Shown here: positions 49,878 to 59,846 of the stretch, one piece after another
Position numbering within the stretch: the first letter of the stretch is position 1
Layout of the letters: every line of letters begins with the position of its first letter
Assembly (NCBI GenBank): GCA_949297665.1
Contig: CASFTO010000090.1
Location: forward strand, 33,378-97,377
DNA: 64,000 bases
DNA from: an uncultured Alphaproteobacteria bacterium
GTDB taxonomy: Bacteria > Pseudomonadota > Alphaproteobacteria > RF32 > CAG-239
Direction: 5' to 3'
Program-made: the position numbers and the translations under genes
The notes under the pieces: model-generated
Seen by the model: only the letters and a program-made list of their open reading frames with translations
The model's database searches: none
What the model was told of the DNA's origin: nothing

Positions 49878-50315
49878 TTATTGGAGCAGTGATATTATTT
49901 CCGATGATATTTTACACGGACGCATATTTTCCAGACTTAGAAATACTAGAGTGATGTCTATTTCGCACAATATGTTTTCTCCGCGGTAAAGTTTCTGTTC
50001 CATTTTTAGAGATACACCTTTGATTTCTGTTATTTTGCACGTTATATCTAAAGCATCGTCGAGTTTTGCCGGAGATTTATAACTAATGTTACAGTCGCGG
50101 ACAACAAAGCCTTTTCCTTCTTTTTTGAGCATTTCTTCTTGATTGATTCCTAAATGACGGAGAAATTCCGTTCGGGCTCTTTCTGCGTATTTTAAATAAT
50201 TTGCGTAGTAAACTATGCCACCGGCATCGGTGTCTTCATAATAAATTCTTATAGGGAATGAAAATGTTTTATCTTCAAAGAGTTTTCCTTTTATTGTGTC
50301 TGTGGTATATGTCAT
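49878..50315 (-). CDS. ybgC: Tol-Pal-associated acyl-CoA thioesterase YbgC (4HBT family)
   Basis: Hotdog-fold motif YYEDTDAGGIVYYANYLKY; position next to ruvB. Confidence 0.8.
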   Translation of the reverse strand: MTYTTDTIKGKLFEDKTFSFPIRIYYEDTDAGGIVYYANYLKYAERARTEFLRHLGINQEEMLKKEGKGFVVRDCNISYKSPAKLDDALDITCKITEIKGVSLKMEQKLYRGENILCEIDITLVFLSLENMRPCKISSEIISLLQ

Positions 50316-50319
50316 CTTC

Positions 50320-51381
50320 TTAAATTCCTAAATCATCCATAAAACTAAATTGGTTATTGTTGTTTTTGAATTTGCTTATGCCTAAATATTTGCATCCTTG
50401 TTCAGATAAAACACGTCCTCTTGGTGTACGTTGTAAAAATCCCAGCTTTAGCAAATAAGGCTCAATTACTTCTTCAATTGTATCGCGTTCTTCTGATAAG
50501 GCTGCGGCTAATGTATCGGCTCCGACTGGACCTCCTCCATAGTTCTTTGCTATGCAATTTAAATATCTACGGTCAAATTCATCTAATCCATATGCATCGA
50601 CATCTAATAATCTTAGGGCTTTGTCGGCAATTGCTGAATCTATTTCAACATTACCGGCAACGGCTCCGAAATCTCGAACACGTTTCAATAAACGACCGGC
50701 AATACGCGGCGTGCCTCGCGAACGTTTGGCTATTTCCATGGCGCCGTCATTTGAAATCGGCATGTTTAATAAGTGTGCGCCTCTTAATACGATTTTTTGT
50801 AAATCTTCATGATTATAAAAGTCCATACGCAACGGAATTCCAAAGCGTTCTCTTAATGGGGTAGATACTAGACCCGAACGTGTTGTTGCGCCGACTAGTG
50901 TGAAAGGTTGTAAGTCTATTTTTACCGAACGAGCGGAAGGACCTTCCCCGATAATAATGTCTAGTTGAAAGTCTTCCATGGCGGAATATAAAACTTCTTC
51001 TATGGCGGGGTTTAGACGATGAATCTCGTCGATAAATAATACATCTCTGGCTTCTAAATTTGTTAATATTGCCGCTAAATCTCCGGATTTTGTTATCATT
51101 GGTGCTGATGTTGCCTTAAATCCTACTCCCAGTTCTTTAGATATAATGTTGGATAGGGTGGTTTTACCTAGACCGGGAGGTCCGTAAAGTAATACATGGT
51201 CTAAAACTTCACCTCTGCTTTTGGCAGATTGGATGAAAACTTTTAGGTTTTGACATACTTTTTCTTGCCCGACAAATTCATCTAATGTTGTCGGACGTAA
51301 ATTTATGCTTGCCGGAGAATTGTTTTCATCAGTGGAGAGTTTTTTTGCGCTTACAATTCTTTCTTTTTCATCGGACAGCAT
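50320..51381 (-). CDS. ruvB: Holliday junction branch-migration ATPase RuvB
   Basis: AAA+ Walker [10 protein letters not shown]; 353 aa. Confidence 0.95.
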
Positions 51382-51383
51382 AG

Positions 51384-52073
51384 TTATTTCTCCAGTTGAT
51401 TAAATTCTTTTAGAGCCAGACGTATTAATGTTCCTAAATCAGCTTTAGGATTATTTAAGCAAATTTCTGTGGCAACACGATAAGCATCGATTTTTTGATA
51501 TCCTAAATTGGTTAAGGCTGAAGTTACGTCTTCTGTGTTATTATAGGTTTGACTTTCTGTATCTTCTGTATCAGAGATTTTTGATGGGGAAACTTTGGCT
51601 GTTGTTTCTTCTGCGCTTACTTCTGTGAATTGTGCTTTTTCTATATCCGAGGTTCCCATATATTCAACGGGAATGGTGACAATTTTATCTTTTAATTCCG
51701 TTACTAATCGTGCAGCCAATTTGGGACCGACACCTGAAGCTCTGAGAAAAGAACTTTTATCTTGTGCGGCAACGGCTTGCGATAGTTGTGCCGGTGATAA
51801 TGCACTTAATATACTTAAGCAAACTTTTCCTCCAACGCCTTGTATTTTGGTCAGAGTGTTAAACCATTCCTTTTCCCACGGATTTTGAAAACCGAACAGT
51901 GTTATACTATCTTCTTTTATTACAGTTTCTATTAATAAAGAAGCATATTCGCTTTGTTTTAGTTTTGAAAGTGATCGAGATGACATGTTGACGAGGTAGC
52001 CAACCCCGTTTACGTCTATGATGCAACAGTCTTCTCCTATGTTGTCAATAATTCCTTTTAATTTTGCTATCAT
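51384..52073 (-). CDS. ruvA: Holliday junction DNA helicase RuvA
   Basis: [10 protein letters not shown]-terminus with RBS AAAGGA. The ORF track extends 17 codons further, to 52124. Confidence 0.9.
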
Positions 52074-52209
52074 CTTTTTTCCTTTGTTTTTTGTAAGTCT
52101 AAAGGTCTTTTTGTCGGCCTTCAAGTGTTTTTTTATATAACCCCCTTTTATTCGTGGTTTTGATGGTTATATCCGTGATGATGTTTAAACATTATTAAAG
52201 GATGTAAGG

Positions 52210-53355
52210 ATGAAAGAATGTAAGGTGTTTATTTTAGCTTTATTGTGTTTTATGGGGACGGAAAATGCCGGTGCGGAAAGTTTAATATCTGAGTATCAGC
52301 AGTTTAAAAATAATCTTAATCAAAAATACGGGTTTGATTATAATGTTGATGTTTCCGTATTAGGACAGCGAACCAGTCCAAGTGGTAAAAATAATGCGGT
52401 TCAAGCATATATTTATCCCGAATTTTCTTGGACGACTTTTGATAATCATTATGGTACCGGGACTTTAAATTTTGCTTATACAATTATTCGTTACGGAAAT
52501 CATAATGCAAATGATTTAGCGGGTAATTCCGGCTTTGTTACGGGAATTAATGATTATACCAATGACGAAAATCAGTTTGATGAACTCTATTATACTTATC
52601 AATTACCGGCGAATTGGAATTGGTTAACTTTTGCTCTCGGACAATTTCCTCTCTATAATTTTGACGGGACAAATTATGATTCTAATCAGCAAGTTAATTT
52701 CTTAAATGATTCTTTGGCACAAAACGCTTCGGCTTCATATTCTGATGCCGGTTTGGGTGGGTATGTGCAGATTACGCCTAATGATGAATGGAACTTTACG
52801 TTTGGTGGACAAGATGCTACAAATGTTGAGGCTCCCAGTATCCGTTTTAATCATTTGGATGAAAATCATTATACAACATTTGGATATGTTGCGTATACTC
52901 CCACTATTAAAGGTTTAGGGGATGCGGAAATTTCTTTGTTGGTATATAATCAACCGGCTGTTACAGAACAGCCTCAGACAACTAATGGGTGGTCGCTTAA
53001 TTTATCTCAAAATATTGGGGAAAAATTTAGTGTTTTTGCTCGTGTAAATGAAGTTAGCGGTAGTATGGAAGAAATTCGACAATCTTGGGTATTGGGAGGT
53101 GTTTATAACAATCCTTTAGATAGGAACCCTTTGGATCAAATAGGTTTAGCGTATGCTTATAATAAAATCGATGAAGCGGCTGTCGGTGAACAAATTTCTC
53201 ATAAGGCTGAACAAATTATAGAGGCGTATTGGGCGTGGGGAATTGGTGATATGTTGACGATTACTCCTGATGTGCAGTTGTATATTAATCCGGCGCTTAA
53301 TCAAAAATCTGATTATGGGGTGGTTACCAGTCTGCGTGCAACTGTGTTCTTTTAG
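52210..53355 (+). CDS. Outer-membrane porin (possibly OprB-like carbohydrate porin family)
   Basis: Signal peptide, beta-strand-rich sequence, C-terminal ...LRATVFF. The OprB-family assignment is tentative. Confidence 0.65.
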   Translation: MKECKVFILALLCFMGTENAGAESLISEYQQFKNNLNQKYGFDYNVDVSVLGQRTSPSGKNNAVQAYIYPEFSWTTFDNHYGTGTLNFAYTIIRYGNHNANDLAGNSGFVTGINDYTNDENQFDELYYTYQLPANWNWLTFALGQFPLYNFDGTNYDSNQQVNFLNDSLAQNASASYSDAGLGGYVQITPNDEWNFTFGGQDATNVEAPSIRFNHLDENHYTTFGYVAYTPTIKGLGDAEISLLVYNQPAVTEQPQTTNGWSLNLSQNIGEKFSVFARVNEVSGSMEEIRQSWVLGGVYNNPLDRNPLDQIGLAYAYNKIDEAAVGEQISHKAEQIIEAYWAWGIGDMLTITPDVQLYINPALNQKSDYGVVTSLRATVFF

Positions 53356-53415
53356 CCGATTGTTTTTACTTTTTTTGTTTCGACCTACTGTTGTTTGGGC
53401 AATGGTAGGTTTCTT

Positions 53416-53443
53416 TTTAAATACATTGTTTAAATACATCGTT
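53416..53443 (+). repeat. Tandem pair of the dispersed 15-mer TTTAAATACAYYGTT
   Basis: tttaaatacattgtt then ttaaatacatcgtt; other copies are listed in the findings. Confidence 0.85.
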
Positions 53444-53572
53444 TTTTCTTTTTTATTCATAAACGGCCTTTTTCGTTGTGTATTAATGGTATTTTCTTGA
53501 TGTTTCTTCTGTAAAAAAGGGGTATGTATTCGATATTAATTGAAGTTCTGGTAAGAGGTGAGTTTTTTTAAT

Positions 53573-54103
53573 ATGCGAAAGCTAGGATTGTTTGTTTTTA
53601 TAATGTTAATTTCTGCGTGTCAGTCTAAACAAGTTATTGTGCCGGCTGTTGTTCATAATGTTAGTACAACTCAGGAGGTTGTTGTGGAAAAAGCTCGTTT
53701 GCCGATTATCGGAGAAGTTGAACCAATTTATTTTTTACCGATGAAATCTCCGTTTGCTGCCAGAATTGATACCGGTGCGACAACGTCTTCTTTGGATTGT
53801 AATGATGTGGAATATTTTGAACGTGATGGCGAAAAATGGGTGTCCTTTAAACTTAAAAATCGTAAAACAGGTGAAGAACATTTGTTTGAAAAAAAAATTG
53901 AGCGTTCGTTTAAAGTTAAACGAGCCGGACAAGATGAGAGCCGTAAAGCTGTGAAAATGGATGTTAAAATGGGAGGAGAAGTCTTTTCTGCTGTTTTCTC
54001 TATCGCTGATAGATCTGATTTTGATTATCAAGGGTTAATCGGACGTAATATTTTAACAGGAAGATTTTTGGTTGATACATCTACTTCTTATACGCTGAAC
54101 TAA
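53573..54103 (+). CDS. Retropepsin-like (clan AA, DTGA-type) aspartic protease, lipoprotein
   Basis: Signal peptide with lipobox LISAC; catalytic AARIDTGATTSSL. The family is usually annotated as putative ATP-dependent zinc protease or clan_AA_DTGA. The ORF track starts at GTG 53558; the ATG at 53573 has RBS AAGAGGTGA. Confidence 0.65.
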   Translation: MRKLGLFVFIMLISACQSKQVIVPAVVHNVSTTQEVVVEKARLPIIGEVEPIYFLPMKSPFAARIDTGATTSSLDCNDVEYFERDGEKWVSFKLKNRKTGEEHLFEKKIERSFKVKRAGQDESRKAVKMDVKMGGEVFSAVFSIADRSDFDYQGLIGRNILTGRFLVDTSTSYTLN

Positions 54104-54112
54104 TTAGGATGA

Positions 54113-55663
54113 ATGATTATGAAACTAAATTTAACCAGATTTTTTACTATTAGAAAAGTTTTGAGTCTTTTGTTGATTTGTGCTGTAGGTTATGCAGCGT
54201 ATAGTATCTATTATAAGGTTAAATATTGGGGATTTTCTCTCTCTCCAAAGGCTGTTACTGATGTATGGACGGTAGATGCTAAAATTTCATTTAGGGCTCT
54301 TGGGGGAGATGTTAAAGTTTCTTTGGCTGTTCCAAATGATAGAGATGGTTTTAAAATCCTTAGTGAGGAAATTGTTGCTAAAGGTTATAAAATTACACAG
54401 GATAAAATTAATAGCCGTGTTGTCTTGGAGGGAAAGGATAAAGAAGGTAAGCAGAATCTGTATTATCGTTTGAGTATTTATGATGATGCGCAGAATGTTG
54501 CTCTTAATTCTTTGTTAGCAGCAAAAATCGATAGACCTATTTTATCTGAAGAAGAAACTATTCAAATGCGCAAAATTTGGGAATTGTCTGAGTTACAAAA
54601 AGGTGATAAAATCCAAAAGGCTATTTTGGCTATTAATCAAGAGGTTAATAATCCTACAATGAGTTTGATTCTGCCTCTTAATCATACAGCAAAAGAATTT
54701 GCGGAAAAAGTTATTCAGGTTTTGGCTTATAAAAGAATTCCTGCTCGTATTGCAAGAACGATTAAACTTGAGGAAGGGCGTAAAACCGAAAAGCCGGATA
54801 TTATGTTGGAGGCATATTATGACGGACATTGGACGCTTTATGATTTGAATACGGCTAAAATAGGGCTGCCTAAAAATTGGGTTATCATTCAAAGAGGCGG
54901 AGTTTCTCTTTTGGACGTTAAGGGGGGCGAGGATTCTACGGTCGTCTTCTCTGTTTTGAAATCGGTGGCTTCTCCTCTGAAAATGGCTGAGCATCGTGCT
55001 AAAGCTCATGATGAACTTTGGAGTTATAATTATTCTATGTATACTTTGCCGGTGTTTGAACAAAATACTTTAAAATGGTTGATGATTTTTCCTCTGGCGA
55101 TTTTAGTTGTTGTTATTATGCGTAATGTTATCGGTGTGTCTACCATGGGGACTTTTACTCCTATGTTGTTAGCTATGGCTCTGGTACGGACCGGATTTTG
55201 GCCGGGATTGATTTGTTTTTCGGTGATGATTGCTTTGGGTTTGGTTATGAGAGCTTTGGTGGCGAAATTGAATTTGTTATTGGTGCCGAGAATCTCTTTT
55301 GTTGTTATTTTTGTTATCTTACTTATTCAAGTTTTGACTGTTGTGGGCTATCGGCTTAATTATACAATTGTCAGTTCGGCTATTTTCTTCCCGATTATTA
55401 TTACCGCGTGGATTATTGAACGTGCTTCTATTACTTGGGAAGAAGAGGGGGCCGTTAATACTTTGAAAGAAATTTTGTTTACTTTTATAACGGCTGTTGT
55501 GACCTACTTTGTTATCAGTAATGAATATGTACGACATGTTATGTTTGCTTTTAATGAACTTAATTTGGTGATTTTATTTGTGGTTATGTTGTTGGGGACT
55601 TATACAGGTTATCGCGTAACGGAATTGATGCGCTTTGCACCGCTTATCCATAAGGAAAATTGA
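54113..55663 (+). CDS. Membrane protein: N-terminal inactive transglutaminase-like domain fused to a C-terminal 7-TM module
   Basis: N-terminal signal-anchor, a roughly 300 aa extracytoplasmic domain, then 6-7 hydrophobic helices (WLMIFPLAILVVVIM ... TYTGYRVTELMRF). The architecture and neighbourhood match the 7TM-transglutaminase partner of RimK-related ligases. Confidence 0.6.
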   Translation: MIMKLNLTRFFTIRKVLSLLLICAVGYAAYSIYYKVKYWGFSLSPKAVTDVWTVDAKISFRALGGDVKVSLAVPNDRDGFKILSEEIVAKGYKITQDKINSRVVLEGKDKEGKQNLYYRLSIYDDAQNVALNSLLAAKIDRPILSEEETIQMRKIWELSELQKGDKIQKAILAINQEVNNPTMSLILPLNHTAKEFAEKVIQVLAYKRIPARIARTIKLEEGRKTEKPDIMLEAYYDGHWTLYDLNTAKIGLPKNWVIIQRGGVSLLDVKGGEDSTVVFSVLKSVASPLKMAEHRAKAHDELWSYNYSMYTLPVFEQNTLKWLMIFPLAILVVVIMRNVIGVSTMGTFTPMLLAMALVRTGFWPGLICFSVMIALGLVMRALVAKLNLLLVPRISFVVIFVILLIQVLTVVGYRLNYTIVSSAIFFPIIITAWIIERASITWEEEGAVNTLKEILFTFITAVVTYFVISNEYVRHVMFAFNELNLVILFVVMLLGTYTGYRVTELMRFAPLIHKEN

Positions 55664-55664
55664 A

Positions 55665-56612
55665 ATGTTTGAGTGGCTCTTTAATGGAAAAAAATTGCGC
55701 GAAAACGGTGTGTTGGGGATGAACGATCGTAACTATTCGGTAATTGCAAAATATAATAAACGTTCTCTCTATACGCTGGTGGATGATAAAGTTAAAACGA
55801 AAAGATTAGCTAACAGTATCAATATTAATACGCCTAAAATGATTGGTATTATTGAATTCCAGTATCAGGTTAAAAATCTTTTGGATATTGTTAAGGGCTA
55901 CGATACTTTTGTGATTAAACCGGCTCACGGTAGCGGTGGAAAAGGTGTATTGGTAATAAAAAAATATGATGCGAAACATTTTTATAGTGCCTCAGGTGAT
56001 GTTTTGAGCTTTAAAGATGTTTACCAGCATGTTTCTAATACACTGAGCGGACTTTTTAGCTTAGGCGGAAAATATGATGTTGCGCTTATTGAAGAAGCTG
56101 TTAATTTTAGTGATGTGTTCAAAAATTTTAGTTATCATGGCGTACCGGATGTGCGCGTTATTGTCTATAAAGGTTTTCCGGCGATGGTGATGATGCGCTT
56201 GGCTACTAAAGAATCCGGCGGACGCGCTAATTTGCATCAGGGAGCTGTGGGCGTTGGCTTGGATGTCAGTACTGGTTTACCTCTTAATGCCGTTATGCAT
56301 AATAAACCTATTTTTGAACATCCTGATACAAAAGCGAATTTGATGGATTTGCGTGTACCGTTTTGGCGTGAACACTTGATTATCGGTTCTTTGGCCTATG
56401 ATATGACCGGTTTGGGATATTTGGGGGCGGATATTGTGTTAGATGAGAATCGTGGACCGATGATGTTGGAAGTTAATGCTCGTCCCGGGTTGGCTATCCA
56501 AATTGCGAACGGAAAAGGCTTGAAAACACGTTTGCAGGAAATTGATGAAAAGTATCCTTTGGGACTTTCTGCTGAAGAAAGAGTTGATTTTGTCTTGAAT
56601 CAAGGAAAATAA
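55665..56612 (+). CDS. Alpha-L-glutamate ligase-related (RimK-like) ATP-grasp protein
   Basis: ATP-grasp signatures IKPAHGSGGKGVLVI and ADIVLDENRGPMMLEVNARPGL. The likely start MFEWLF at 55665 abuts the stop of the 7TM gene. Confidence 0.75.
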   Translation: MFEWLFNGKKLRENGVLGMNDRNYSVIAKYNKRSLYTLVDDKVKTKRLANSININTPKMIGIIEFQYQVKNLLDIVKGYDTFVIKPAHGSGGKGVLVIKKYDAKHFYSASGDVLSFKDVYQHVSNTLSGLFSLGGKYDVALIEEAVNFSDVFKNFSYHGVPDVRVIVYKGFPAMVMMRLATKESGGRANLHQGAVGVGLDVSTGLPLNAVMHNKPIFEHPDTKANLMDLRVPFWREHLIIGSLAYDMTGLGYLGADIVLDENRGPMMLEVNARPGLAIQIANGKGLKTRLQEIDEKYPLGLSAEERVDFVLNQGK

Positions 56613-56782
56613 ATTCCTAAATATTAGCCAGAAATAAATTTTATTACGGAATATGTAGGGAGCTAATGATGTCTAATATTTTAGGAAAAAGTGAAACGAA
56701 AAGTTTGGATAAAAGTGATACGAAGAATTTAACCGCTGATGATACCAAAAAAATTGGTGTCAGCGAAACAAGAGGGAAAAAA

Positions 56783-57274
56783 ATGAAGTATTCTTATAAT
56801 GTGACAGACCCTGAAAATGCATTGGTTTTAAAACTCAAAGACGGGGATGTTGTTATTGAAATGTATCCCGATGCGGCACCAAATCATGTTGCAAGAATAA
56901 AAGAATTGGTTCGTCAAGGATTTTATAATGGCTTAAAATTTCACCGTGTTATTGAAGGTTTTATGGCGCAAACCGGATGCCCTTTAGGAAATGGAACTGG
57001 CGGTAGTGGTAAAAAGTTGAAAGCCGAATTTAATACAATTCCGCATACAAGAGGTATTGTTTCTATGGCGCGTGCTATGCATCCAGATTCAGCGGATAGT
57101 CAATTCTTTATTTGTTATGATGATTGTTCACATTTGGATGGGCAATACACTGTTTGGGGGAAAGTCGTTTCCGGTATGGAATTTGTTGATAAAATCAAAA
57201 AGGGCGATGGTTATAACGGTATGGTTAGCAAACCCGATGAAATTATCAGTATGCAGGTTATTGCAGATTTATAG
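56783..57274 (+). CDS. ppiB: Cyclophilin-type peptidyl-prolyl cis-trans isomerase
   Basis: FHRVIEGFMAQTGCP ... QFFICYDDCSHLDGQYTVWG. RBS AGAGGGA precedes the ATG at 56783. An in-frame upstream extension to 56666 encodes a Thr/Lys/Asp-rich tail of uncertain reality. Confidence 0.85.
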   Translation: MKYSYNVTDPENALVLKLKDGDVVIEMYPDAAPNHVARIKELVRQGFYNGLKFHRVIEGFMAQTGCPLGNGTGGSGKKLKAEFNTIPHTRGIVSMARAMHPDSADSQFFICYDDCSHLDGQYTVWGKVVSGMEFVDKIKKGDGYNGMVSKPDEIISMQVIADL

Positions 57275-57288
57275 GGGGATATAAATTT

Positions 57289-57318
57289 TTTGAAGGGCGT
57301 TCGAATGAGCGCCTTTTT
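57289..57318 (+). terminator. Intrinsic terminator after ppiB
   Basis: aagggcg-ttcgaatga-gcgcctt followed by TTTTT. Confidence 0.6.
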
Positions 57319-57331
57319 CTTTAAATGAATG

Positions 57332-57360
57332 TTGACAAAAAATATCTTGTATTTTAATGT
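57332..57360 (+). promoter_or_regulatory. Sigma70-like promoter, TTGACA then a 15-17 nt spacer then TTTAAT/TAATGT
   Basis: Consensus -35 with an AT-rich -10 about 40 nt upstream of the 57401 gene. Confidence 0.35.
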
Positions 57361-57400
57361 TTTGGCAAAATTAAATTATTGTAAAATCTAAAATTGTTAT

Positions 57401-58540
57401 GTGATGAAAAATACTATTTTAAAACAAGTCAATGCAATAGGTGCAGAACTTGTATTTCCATTTTATGTTTATCCCGATGGAACTTGCGGTAAATCAATAG
57501 CTTCAGGAAGGCTTAACGCAGTTATGGTGGTTAAAAAGAAATTTCCGGTTGAAGAACTTAAATCGGATTTTTTAACAGGTTCTCAAGGTTTGGATGAAAA
57601 TGTTTTGGCTCATTTGACCGAAATCGGTAATCAGTTGGGCTTTCTTTTTTATATCTATGCTGACGGAACGTGTGGTTTAACACCTTCTTCAACGCTGAAC
57701 AAATTTCCGTTTACGATGATGGTTAAAAAGCCGTTTGTTGTTAATCAGATGGTGATTGAGCCTGATGATGTTGTAAATTCTGTTTCTTCTACTGCTAAAA
57801 AAACAACCTCCTATCCTCATTCAATATGGACTTTGCCGGAGCCTCAGGTTTTTATGCCGACAGATGAAGAGTTAAAAATTCTTGAAAAAGCTCGGGAAAA
57901 AGTGCGGAAAAGAGGTTATTTAGACGAAGATACTGAAAGAGTTTATCTTTGTTTTTCTACAGATAAAGAATTTGAATATTTTGTTTTGAATAGAATTTTA
58001 TCAGGTTCTAACGAAAAATATATTCTTTTACGTGGAACGCAAGATTTGGTTAAAAAGTATGTTCTTAAGCATTGCTGGGATGATGCTGTTGTAGATCTTA
58101 TGGCGGAGCGTTGTTCTGATGACGTTATTTTAGCTTATTTTAGTAAGTGGCTTGTTCGTGTTAATGTAATAGAAAAATTACTAGAATTTGGGCGATTTGA
58201 GTTGATTGAGAAAATCCAAGAGGTTAGTTCTTTGGATGCTTGTAGGTTGTGTTCAGATAGGCATGTCGCCGCTATTATCAAAGCAGGTCATTCGGAATTG
58301 TTAAAAACACAAATTAAGAAACATGGTTTTCGTCATAAAGATGATGTCGAGGCACTTATTAAAACCGGAAATGTGGAGATGATAAAGTATTATTTGGATT
58401 ATCATTCTCTTTCTGAAAGTGCTCAAAAAGAGTTGATAGAGCTTGGTAACGCTCAGTTGGTTAAAATTTATCAAGAGCGATATGGTTTTTGCTCTGATTC
58501 TCTTAAATTGGCTAAATGGCGTGGGGTACTTTGTGCTTGA
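57401..58540 (+). CDS. Hypothetical protein with an N-terminal tandem duplication (about 45 aa modules carrying F-x-F-Y-[VI]-Y-x-D-G-T-C-G) and a helical C-terminal region
   Basis: Modules at residues about 10-55 and 70-115 (VFPFYVYPDGTCGKS / FLFYIYADGTCGLT, each followed by MVKK). No recognised domain. Confidence 0.6.
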   Translation: MMKNTILKQVNAIGAELVFPFYVYPDGTCGKSIASGRLNAVMVVKKKFPVEELKSDFLTGSQGLDENVLAHLTEIGNQLGFLFYIYADGTCGLTPSSTLNKFPFTMMVKKPFVVNQMVIEPDDVVNSVSSTAKKTTSYPHSIWTLPEPQVFMPTDEELKILEKAREKVRKRGYLDEDTERVYLCFSTDKEFEYFVLNRILSGSNEKYILLRGTQDLVKKYVLKHCWDDAVVDLMAERCSDDVILAYFSKWLVRVNVIEKLLEFGRFELIEKIQEVSSLDACRLCSDRHVAAIIKAGHSELLKTQIKKHGFRHKDDVEALIKTGNVEMIKYYLDYHSLSESAQKELIELGNAQLVKIYQERYGFCSDSLKLAKWRGVLCA

Positions 58541-58567
58541 TGTGACAACTTGGTTAATAATAAAAAG

Positions 58568-58600
58568 GCTTTCTTCTTATGAAGAGAGCCTTTTTGTTTG
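58568..58600. terminator. Bidirectional terminator between the 57401 gene and ruvC
   Basis: aggctttcttc-ttat-gaagagagcct followed by TTTTT. Confidence 0.65.
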
Positions 58601-58602
58601 GA

Positions 58603-59091
58603 TTATACCGCATGGTCTTTGTATGAATTGCGTAGATTGCAATGGGTTATTGCAATCGCTAAGGCGTCTGAAGAGTCATTGTTTTTAGGTTGACAGCCGG
58701 GGAGAAGAATTTTTACCATTGTTTCTACTTGGTTTTTATCTGCTTTTCCGACTCCGGTTAGCGCTTTTTTGATTTTGTTTGGTTCATATTCAAACAAAGG
58801 AATATTATAAAGTGTCGGCATTAAAAAAACGACACCTCTCGCCATACTTAATTTTAAAGAGGTTTCCGGGTTGGTGTTCAAAAATGTTATTTCTATTGAT
58901 GCTTCGTCGGGTTTGTATAGCTCAATTATTCTTTGAAGTTCCGTAAAAATCGTATGTAACCTCGTGGATAGGGATGCTTTTGCTGATGTCGGAATAAAAC
59001 CGTCTGCCACATAGGACAGACGGTTTCCGTTTATATCAATTATTCCCCAACCGGTGGAGGATATGCTCGGGTCTAAACCCAAAACACGCAT
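58603..59091 (-). CDS. ruvC: Crossover junction endodeoxyribonuclease RuvC
   Basis: 162 aa; N-terminal catalytic LGLDPS; RNase H-like fold. Confidence 0.9.
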   Translation of the reverse strand: MRVLGLDPSISSTGWGIIDINGNRLSYVADGFIPTSAKASLSTRLHTIFTELQRIIELYKPDEASIEITFLNTNPETSLKLSMARGVVFLMPTLYNIPLFEYEPNKIKKALTGVGKADKNQVETMVKILLPGCQPKNNDSSDALAIAITHCNLRNSYKDHAV

Positions 59092-59846
59092 TATTCAGCC
59101 TCCAGTTGAGCCATAATTTCTTCCGCAATTTCTGCATTATGGTAAACGTGTTGAACGTCTTCGTCATCTTCTAAAGCGTCAACAAATTCTAAGAACTTCT
59201 TAGCTGTTTCCAAATCCGTAATTTCTGTTTTAACGGTTGGTTTCCAGTCTAAACGAGAAGCTGACGGCGTTCCGAATTTCTTTTCCAATGCGTCTGTTAC
59301 GGCAGACAAATCATCCGGTAAAGTTTCGATAGCGTGGATTTCGCTGTCTGATATTACATCATTAGCGCCGGCTTCCAATGCTTCTTCAAACATCTTATCT
59401 GCATCTGCAACGCTTGCCGGATATTCAATATAACCGATACGTTCAAAGTTGAAAGATACAGAACCTGTTTCACCCATAGCACCGCCACGTTTGCCGAAAA
59501 TAGAACGAACGTTGCTTGCGGTACGATTTTTGTTATCGGTTAGTGCTTCTACGATAACGGCAACTTTGTTTGGAGAGAAACCTTCATAGCGCATGGAGGT
59601 GAAGTCTGCACCGCCGGCAACTTGGGTTGCTTTGGCAATAGCACGTTCGATATTGTCTTTCGGCATACTTTCTGCTCTTGCGGCTTGAATGGCTAATCTT
59701 AAACGTGGGTTTTTATCCGGTTCAGGTAAGCCACTTTTGGCGGCAACGGTTATTTCTCTGGCAAGTTTTGCAAATACTCTTGCTTTTTTTGCATCTTGTG
59801 CACCTTTACGGTACATAATGTTCTTAAATTGGGAGTGTCCTGACAT
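59091..59846 (-). CDS. YebC/PmpR family DNA-binding transcriptional regulator
   Basis: 251 aa with the typical YebC N-terminus MSGHSQFKNIMYRKG. Confidence 0.9.
   Translation of the reverse strand: MSGHSQFKNIMYRKGAQDAKKARVFAKLAREITVAAKSGLPEPDKNPRLRLAIQAARAESMPKDNIERAIAKATQVAGGADFTSMRYEGFSPNKVAVIVEALTDNKNRTASNVRSIFGKRGGAMGETGSVSFNFERIGYIEYPASVADADKMFEEALEAGANDVISDSEIHAIETLPDDLSAVTDALEKKFGTPSASRLDWKPTVKTEITDLETAKKFLEFVDALEDDEDVQHVYHNAEIAEEIMAQLEAE

Follow-up and report, generated by a model that had tools for sequence, protein, structure and literature searches.

A clade-conserved block of porin, rloABC-like and cyclophilin genes at the ruvC-ruvA junction of uncultured Alphaproteobacteria from gut and rumen

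The DNA analyzed here, 64,000 nucleotides of contig CASFTO010000090.1 (GenBank assembly GCA_949297665.1; hereafter the window) from an uncultured gut alphaproteobacterium, has a GC content of approximately 36% and raises a question about one of its core DNA-repair loci. Approximately 6.5 kb parts the minus-strand genes yebC-ruvC (59846-58603) from ruvA-ruvB-ybgC (52073-49878), and six plus-strand genes lie inside this segment. Is it an accessory island inserted into a core operon, as had been proposed in an earlier interpretation made from the letters of the window (hereafter the sequence-only reading), or a long-standing resident of the site? Our results make it likely that the segment has long occupied the ruvA-ruvC junction and been inherited vertically in a clade of gut and rumen Alphaproteobacteria, rather than being a mobile or recent island, and that it consists of a porin gene, an rloABC-cyclophilin operon belonging to the Rlo system, and a cassette holding an orphan gene, orf6. 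The open reading frames (ORFs) and the Pfam and NCBIfam matches confirmed both the coordinates and the identities of the six dividing genes, which are given below with start codons taken from independent gene calls on the identical public contig.

52210..53355, plus strand: gene for an OprB/AaxA-family outer-membrane porin (PF04966, E 3e-15, 56.9 bits versus 22.9).
53573..54103, plus strand: rloA-like gene for a retropepsin-type aspartic peptidase, a predicted lipoprotein of 176 aa (ORF to a GTG at 53558; PF05618, E 8e-28).
54119..55663 (ORF from 54113), plus strand: rloB-like gene for an inner-membrane protein of 514 aa (PF14400, E 9e-27, 94.5 bits; PF14402, E 4e-76, 256 bits).
55665..56612 (ORF from 55635), plus strand: rloC-like gene for a cytoplasmic ATP-grasp protein resembling alpha-L-glutamate ligases (TIGR02291, 412.5 bits, above the cutoff of 314.2; PF14397, E 2e-84).
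56669..57274 (ORF from 56666), plus strand: ppi, gene for a cyclophilin-type peptidyl-prolyl isomerase (PPIase; PF00160, E 8e-45).
57401..58540, plus strand: orf6, gene for a lineage-restricted orphan protein of 379 aa (no Pfam or NCBIfam match).

A RuvA-anchored scan, with one genome per species, yielded 80 loci, onto which the window proteins were mapped by tblastn. All come from uncultured gut and rumen Alphaproteobacteria, except for the most distant, Rhodospirillaceae-type loci, in which RuvA is 43 to 48% identical. The seven most distant loci, which serve as outgroups, have the order yebC-ruvC-ruvA-ruvB-ybgC with ruvC-ruvA gaps of 29 to 170 bp. The series porin-rloA-rloB-rloC-ppi adjoins ruvA in 32 of the 80 loci, and these 32 group together on a neighbor-joining tree of RuvA plus RuvB, where they form two deep sub-clades, with RuvA identities that range between 93% and 56%. 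At the far end of this five-gene module, ruvC-yebC is found in its ancestral orientation in 19 of the 32 loci. Over the same loci, every module protein varies in identity in step with RuvB (Spearman rho 0.88-0.93), which is what vertical co-inheritance predicts. By these comparisons, we judge the five-gene block to be ancestral to a family-level lineage and derived relative to the outgroups, whose narrow ruvC-ruvA gaps suggest that it was inserted once, long ago. The sequence-only reading had reasoned that relatives sharing this gene content at the junction would speak for an ancestral arrangement, and this is what we found for five of the six genes. Its insertion therefore stands as an event in deep time, in which extra genes entered a locus that is contiguous in the outgroups and otherwise unchanged in order and orientation, and fails as a recent accessory island.

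The composition of the segment agrees with this history. GC content is flat over the segment and its flanks; the six genes range from 0.354 to 0.390 against 0.364 ± 0.051 for the backbone, and their GC content, GC content at third codon positions, and codon-usage distance all fall within the distribution set by the remaining 50 ORFs of the window, so that the comparison suggested in the sequence-only reading left inserted and backbone genes indistinguishable. No integrase or transposase was found among the ORFs of the segment, and the ORFs listed include no tRNA-like feature as a target, although no separate tRNA gene scan was made. Searches for direct and inverted repeats at the segment borders returned only short imperfect matches, none of which pairs the two ends. 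The patchy presence among close relatives that marks accessory DNA was seen for orf6 alone (3 loci), and not for the five-gene block (32 of 32 clade loci, with L067 as the sole instance of a secondary loss of rloABC-ppi). In a search for RloB homologues, the best 120 matches (at least 55% identity) were all members of the clade, so that they point to no source of the block, be it translocation or ancient horizontal transfer. A tblastn search of RloB against plasmids returned two records, a chromosome-sized Aeromonas 'plasmid' and a Legionella plasmid, which we used as gammaproteobacterial comparison loci and not as evidence of mobility.

A recent, horizontally acquired accessory island that disrupted a ruvC-ruvAB operon would account for the sight of six co-oriented, opposite-strand genes interrupting a gene order that the outgroups keep unbroken; Rlo operons are, moreover, best known from Gammaproteobacteria (PMC12239564), and one is carried on the Legionella plasmid. 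Such an origin is nonetheless highly improbable, given that five of the six genes are kept at the site throughout the clade, co-diverge with RuvB, and match the backbone in composition and codon usage, with neither mobility genes nor border repeats in the segment. The term accessory island is thus unsupported except for orf6. What looks like an island in a core DNA-repair locus is better described as a lineage-fixed arrangement and does not belong in a tally of mobile or recently transferred DNA.

Several points weigh against an old block inherited vertically as a whole. All of the relatives are metagenome-assembled genomes, in which some arrangements could be assembly artefacts, and the tree was built from two proteins and carries no support values. 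In 13 of the 32 module loci (L006, L007, L008, L011, L020, L029, and the seven-locus L034 sub-clade), other genes follow ppi, and ruvC-yebC does not appear within the 0.7 to 4.8 kb of upstream flank; because these flanks span no more than that, the claim that ruvC-module-ruvA is the ancestral order rests on parsimony. One locus, L052, groups with the sister clade yet has the porin gene by ruvA without rloABC, from which it follows that the block may have been built stepwise. On the functional side, the NCBIfam scores of RloA and RloB lie well below the curated cutoffs, so that both count here as putative functional equivalents of the Pseudomonas proteins, and both the operon and all of the Rlo mechanism set out below are inferred.

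In a stepwise history, the porin gene would have come to lie by ruvA first, rloABC-ppi would have arrived later, and ruvC-yebC would have been separated or relocated by inversions, the block being a by-product of a rearrangement-prone junction. In L052, porin-ruvA-ruvB-ybgC is inverted in place relative to the window and lies next to lptG, and rloABC-ppi is absent. The order read along L052:5000-12200 is cysK-lptG, then porin (reverse), and ruvA-ruvB-ybgC. A second locus, L067 (1-9900), is nested in the sub-clade of the window; it keeps the porin gene by ruvA and has TetR-like and chromate-transporter-like genes in place of rloABC-ppi. In part of the L034 sub-clade, extra genes separate the porin gene from rloA and from ruvA. 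These loci, the 13 module loci without ruvC in the available upstream sequence, and a terminator between the porin gene and rloA (see below) would all fit stepwise assembly. However, L067 looks like a case of secondary loss or replacement of rloABC-ppi, the simpler explanation because it is nested among module-bearing genomes; the placement of L052, on a long branch, is uncertain; and the five genes occur in identical order in both deep sub-clades. We therefore regard stepwise assembly as unlikely and retain the reading of an old block inherited vertically.

The junction itself, where two transcription units for DNA repair meet, is permissive in general. In the sister gut clade, ruvC and ruvA are adjacent (37-120 bp), split by an HD-domain gene of approximately 0.8 kb, or split by other short inserts. 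The HD-domain gene encodes a phosphohydrolase of approximately 235 aa and lies on the ruv strand between ruvC and ruvA (L042:9188-9904, L030:8511-9224, and about 20 other loci). In Escherichia coli K-12, as in the window, unrelated genes (yebB and yobI) separate ruvC from ruvA, with yebB on the opposite strand; there, however, the gap is approximately 0.9 kb and holds a papain-like amidase and a small protein, as opposed to 6.5 kb and six genes here. The statement that ruvC and ruvA are normally contiguous thus holds for the outgroup Rhodospirillaceae and not for E. coli K-12.

What does the block encode? The rlo operon of Pseudomonas aeruginosa specifies a retropepsin, an inactive transglutaminase fused to a module of seven transmembrane helices (7TM), and an ATP-grasp protein, in that order (Lormand et al., mBio 2025, PMC12239564). 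RloA proteases are secreted, retropepsin-like enzymes that cut runs of at least eight glutamates, and cells that lack all three RloA paralogues are impaired in hypo-osmotic tolerance, cell shape, biofilm formation, and beta-lactam resistance (PMC12239564). Mutations in rloB or rloC suppress the rloA-null defects (PMC12239564); by implication, RloA is needed to take away a product of RloB and RloC. In Shewanella, disruption of an RloB homologue increased the release of membrane vesicles (PMC12096838).

All three families are present in the window. RloA has RloA3 as its best NCBIfam match (104.6 bits, below the cutoff), carries the DTGA motif within a stretch, ARIDTGATT, that is conserved in all clade members examined, and aligns to PDB 9g59 (E 8e-16) and 9g58 (E 4e-14). 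Its N-terminus, MRKLGLFVFIMLISAC, shows by inspection a secretion signal with a lipobox-like LISAC that is conserved across the clade, and the Cys at the equivalent position is kept in both sub-clades. An Arg lies two residues N-terminal of the catalytic Asp, and the alignment to the PDB homologues contains the DRS Arg. In P. aeruginosa RloA, the basic residues of the substrate channel for poly-glutamate are K46, R92, R114, and R137 (PMC12239564). RloB has an N-terminal transmembrane helix, a periplasmic, inactive transglutaminase-like domain, and the 7TM module, with no Cys at residues 35-320, the predicted periplasmic domain; it scored 257 bits with NF052267 against a cutoff of 900, which is tuned to close RloB orthologues. 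One RloB homologue recovered, P0048, is 100% identical to the window protein. RloC is 53% and 47% identical to the RloC proteins of the rloABC operons of Aeromonas and Legionella, respectively.

The locus shares with the Rlo systems of P. aeruginosa, Vibrio, Legionella, and Aeromonas the three families, the order rloA-rloB-rloC (as in the Legionella and Aeromonas loci and the P. aeruginosa operon), and the tight coupling of the genes. It differs from the gammaproteobacterial loci in sequence, with identities of 24 to 34% for RloA, 31 to 32% for RloB, and 47 to 53% for RloC, in its predicted lipoprotein form of RloA, and in its host, an uncultured gut alphaproteobacterium. In addition, the gammaproteobacterial loci examined (the Legionella plasmid and Aeromonas) have neither a porin nor a PPIase gene, whereas the window has a porin gene 5' and a gene for an N-terminally extended cyclophilin 3' of rloABC. 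The RimABK system, in which RimK and RimB act in glutamylation of ribosomal protein S6, likewise couples a poly-glutamate-cleaving, retropepsin-like peptidase to an ATP-grasp glutamate ligase (PMC12239564). RimB, however, is cytoplasmic and without a signal peptide, and RimABK has no RloB-type membrane protein, whereas the window has a lipoprotein signal and RloB; the RimK-family score was far below the cutoff (TIGR00768, 36.9 versus 143). Because RloA and RloB score far below the orthologue-level cutoffs of NCBIfam, we classed the locus as a remote representative of the Rlo system and not as an equivalog. A complete operon of the rloABC type, characterized in 2025 and described as gammaproteobacterial, is thereby placed in abundant uncultured Alphaproteobacteria of the gut and rumen, and its lipoprotein version of the protease, together with a constantly linked cyclophilin, offers comparative material toward the Rlo substrate.

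By homology with the Rlo system, RloC would make, in the cytoplasm, a glutamate-rich product or modification resembling poly-alpha-glutamate. RloB, through its dead transglutaminase-like periplasmic domain and 7TM module, would present or transfer this product at the periplasmic face of the inner membrane, where RloA, as a lipid-anchored periplasmic retropepsin, would trim or remove it. The net effect would be on envelope homeostasis, with osmotic tolerance, cell shape, and vesiculation among the properties tuned.

The transcription units of the segment are suggested by the intergenic distances and by three hairpins, each with a U-run, which fold much better than shuffled controls.

53382..53411, plus strand: intrinsic-terminator-like hairpin with a U-run, 3' of the porin gene (-15.8 kcal/mol, z -4.8).
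57292..57317, plus strand: terminator hairpin with a U-run, 3' of the cyclophilin gene and closing the rloABC-ppi unit (-15.4 kcal/mol, z -3.7).
58559..58598, both strands: bidirectional terminator hairpin, identified by folding and common to orf6 (plus strand) and ruvC (minus strand).

The third hairpin is strong whichever strand is folded (-24.0 and -16.6 kcal/mol, z approximately -7) and is preceded by an A-run and followed by a T-run, so that the label bidirectional terminator given to 58568-58600 in the sequence-only reading was a fair one. The ppi hairpin is kept in close relatives and is the sole hairpin remaining in L003, which has no orf6. The gaps within the rlo genes are 9 nucleotides (nt) between rloA and rloB and 1 nt between the rloB stop codon and the start of rloC, and the 53 nt between rloC and ppi contain no hairpin. 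With these gaps, and with a terminator 3' of each of the porin gene, ppi, and orf6, the segment is most economically read as three units, namely, porin, rloA-rloB-rloC-ppi, and orf6. A promoter scan gave 37 sites as compared with 35.5 in shuffled sequence, and no promoter is claimed from it. The transcriptional separation of ruvC from ruvAB that the sequence-only reading had stressed is plausible, because a terminator follows ruvC, and at the same time nothing unusual, because intervening genes occur in other bacteria too, for instance yebB in E. coli.

The porin gene is probably monocistronic. Its product has a signal-like N-terminal sequence and matches almost the entire AaxA model (NF051888, 282 bits, E 1e-83; cutoff 600). 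It thus resembles AaxA of the chlamydial AaxABC arginine-agmatine system and the OprB family, whose Pfam domain it contains. Unlike AaxA, it scores less than half of the equivalog cutoff and has no adjacent aaxB or aaxC, its neighbors being ruvA and rloA. The gene stays beside ruvA where rloABC is absent, in L067 and L052. With a terminator of its own, this persistence, and the intervening genes in part of the L034 sub-clade, it appears to be a stable neighbor of the rlo genes and yet a separable unit.

The cyclophilin gene is more closely tied to rloABC. In all 32 module loci, ppi lies directly 3' of rloC at a spacing of 44 to 66 nt without a terminator, and it is probably co-transcribed with rloABC. 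The protein starts with an extension of approximately 45 aa (56669-56800 in the window) that is rich in Lys, Ser, Thr, and Glu and contains three or four (S/D)ETKxL-like repeats. Both the length and the motif are kept in the two sub-clades, to RuvA identities of approximately 56%, and this conservation suggests that the extension is under selection. A functional tie of the cyclophilin to rloABC is plausible on these grounds.

Could all five products form one trans-envelope machine, a new five-component variant of Rlo built from a porin, a lipoprotein protease, RloB, the ligase, and a dedicated cyclophilin? Co-localization of the five genes in about 32 genomes, the constant terminator-free linkage of ppi to rloC, the clade-specific conserved extension of the cyclophilin, and a tandem 13-mer conserved in the porin-rloA spacer (described next) would be in line with it. 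On the other hand, the porin gene has its own terminator and persists without rloABC in L067, some genomes have genes inserted between it and rloA, the gammaproteobacterial rloABC loci are without porin or PPIase, and the cyclophilin could be a plain housekeeping enzyme. We consider the five-part machine rather doubtful and keep to separate porin, rloABC-cyclophilin, and orf6 units at one old site.

The sequence-only reading had noted copies of a dispersed 15-mer at 53416-53443. The repeat is indeed dispersed and present in the porin-rloA spacer; it is, however, a 13-mer, TTTAAATACAYYG, of which two exact tandem copies occupy 53416-53441, directly after the porin terminator. In the whole window, 10 copies were counted against 0.85 expected, all on the plus strand whatever the orientation of the local genes.

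2597, 2776, 5614, 6149, 9047, 9801, 44291, 44398, 53416, and 53429, plus strand: copies of the 13-mer TTTAAATACAYYG (window count).

In the copies at 2776 and 9047, the TAA is the stop codon of a plus-strand ORF. Most loci of the sub-clade of the window have one to three copies in the same porin-rloA spacer, and none was found in that spacer in the L034 sub-clade or the sister clade. The 13-mer could be a polar chromosome motif, a signal of the uptake type, or a regulator site. Rlo might have been extended in this clade to a five-part trans-envelope module of an AaxA-like porin, lipoprotein RloA, RloB, RloC, and the (S/D)ETKxL-tailed cyclophilin, with expression or uptake governed by the tandem copies, an extension that we put forward as speculation and think quite unlikely to be correct.

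The sixth gene has a different history. By distribution, orf6 is the only accessory gene of the segment and sits in a hypervariable slot beside ruvC, as one of several unrelated orphan genes that would come and go between the ppi and ruvC terminators. Among the 80 loci, only L001, L002, and L024, the three closest to the window, carry it. In L003, also a close relative, only 64 bp with the ppi terminator separate ppi from ruvC, and the sequence resumes exactly where that of the window does after the orf6 terminator; L004 and L025 have two hairpins with a short spacer in the slot. Other species carry genes unrelated to orf6 there: an orphan of 427 to 441 aa in L010 and L012 (L010:3330-4613, L012:3282-4607), a fast-evolving helical family in L015, L019, and L021 (L015:3449-4465, L019:3462-4460, L021:3112-4782), and an outer-membrane beta-barrel protein in L023 (3360-4307). 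Over the species, at least four mutually unrelated families, three orphan and one beta-barrel, are thus found in this slot, all co-oriented with ppi. The ruvC-ruvA junction and the slot by the ruvC terminator can be viewed as recurrent landing and turnover sites for lineage-specific orphan genes.

The orf6 product had been called a tandem-repeat hypothetical protein, which is right at the protein level and not at the DNA level, where TRF found no meaningful tandem repeat in orf6. Residues of approximately 2-53 and 63-116 are an internal duplication (37% identical, E 8e-12) of an alpha/beta unit of approximately 50 residues with a conserved PFYVYxDGTCG motif, and the C-terminal part is a helical-repeat alpha-solenoid in an AlphaFold2 (AF2) model (pLDDT 83.5). 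Pfam searches of orf6 homologues gave only sub-threshold matches (BibA_N and others, all below their cutoffs), and a Foldseek search against the PDB gave only generic solenoid matches of the armadillo, PUF, and ankyrin kinds (E 0.0096 or worse), from which no function was assigned. The family comprises 47 homologues, all from metagenomes or metagenome-assembled genomes and none with a reliable domain match; its more distant members are located elsewhere on the chromosome, where they again lie at the ends of converging genes. In related gut Alphaproteobacteria, a gene for an 892-aa protein with multiple ankyrin repeats (L086:12430-13038, L087:12186-13038) lies approximately 5 kb from a gene of the orf6 family. 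Eukaryote-like helical-repeat proteins seem to be common in this group.

The backbone genes on the two sides of the segment are as follows.

49878..50315, minus strand: ybgC, gene for a tol-pal-associated acyl-CoA thioesterase (TIGR02799, 159.8 bits, above the cutoff of 141).
50320..51381, minus strand: ruvB (ORF; RuvB_N/AAA Pfam matches on the identical contig; 56% identity to E. coli RuvB).
51384..52073, minus strand: ruvA, encoding 229 aa from an ATG at 52073, the length also assigned by gene callers, with a longer TTG ORF to 52124 (TIGR00084, 173.6 bits).
52074..52209, no strand assigned: divergent intergenic region of 136 bp between ruvA and the porin gene (from the sequence).
58603..59091, minus strand: ruvC (TIGR00228, 139.7 bits, above the cutoff).
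59091..59846, minus strand: gene for a YebC/PmpR-family regulator (NF001030, 333.9 bits, above the cutoff).

We infer that the promoters of both ruvA and the porin gene must sit within 52074-52209. No LexA-type operator (GTTC-N7-GTTC) was seen in these 136 bp 5' of ruvA in a check by eye only. RuvA of the window has 229 aa as compared with 203 aa in E. coli, and the surplus is an acidic, Ser/Thr-rich linker (residues of approximately 150-190) ahead of the C-terminal domain.

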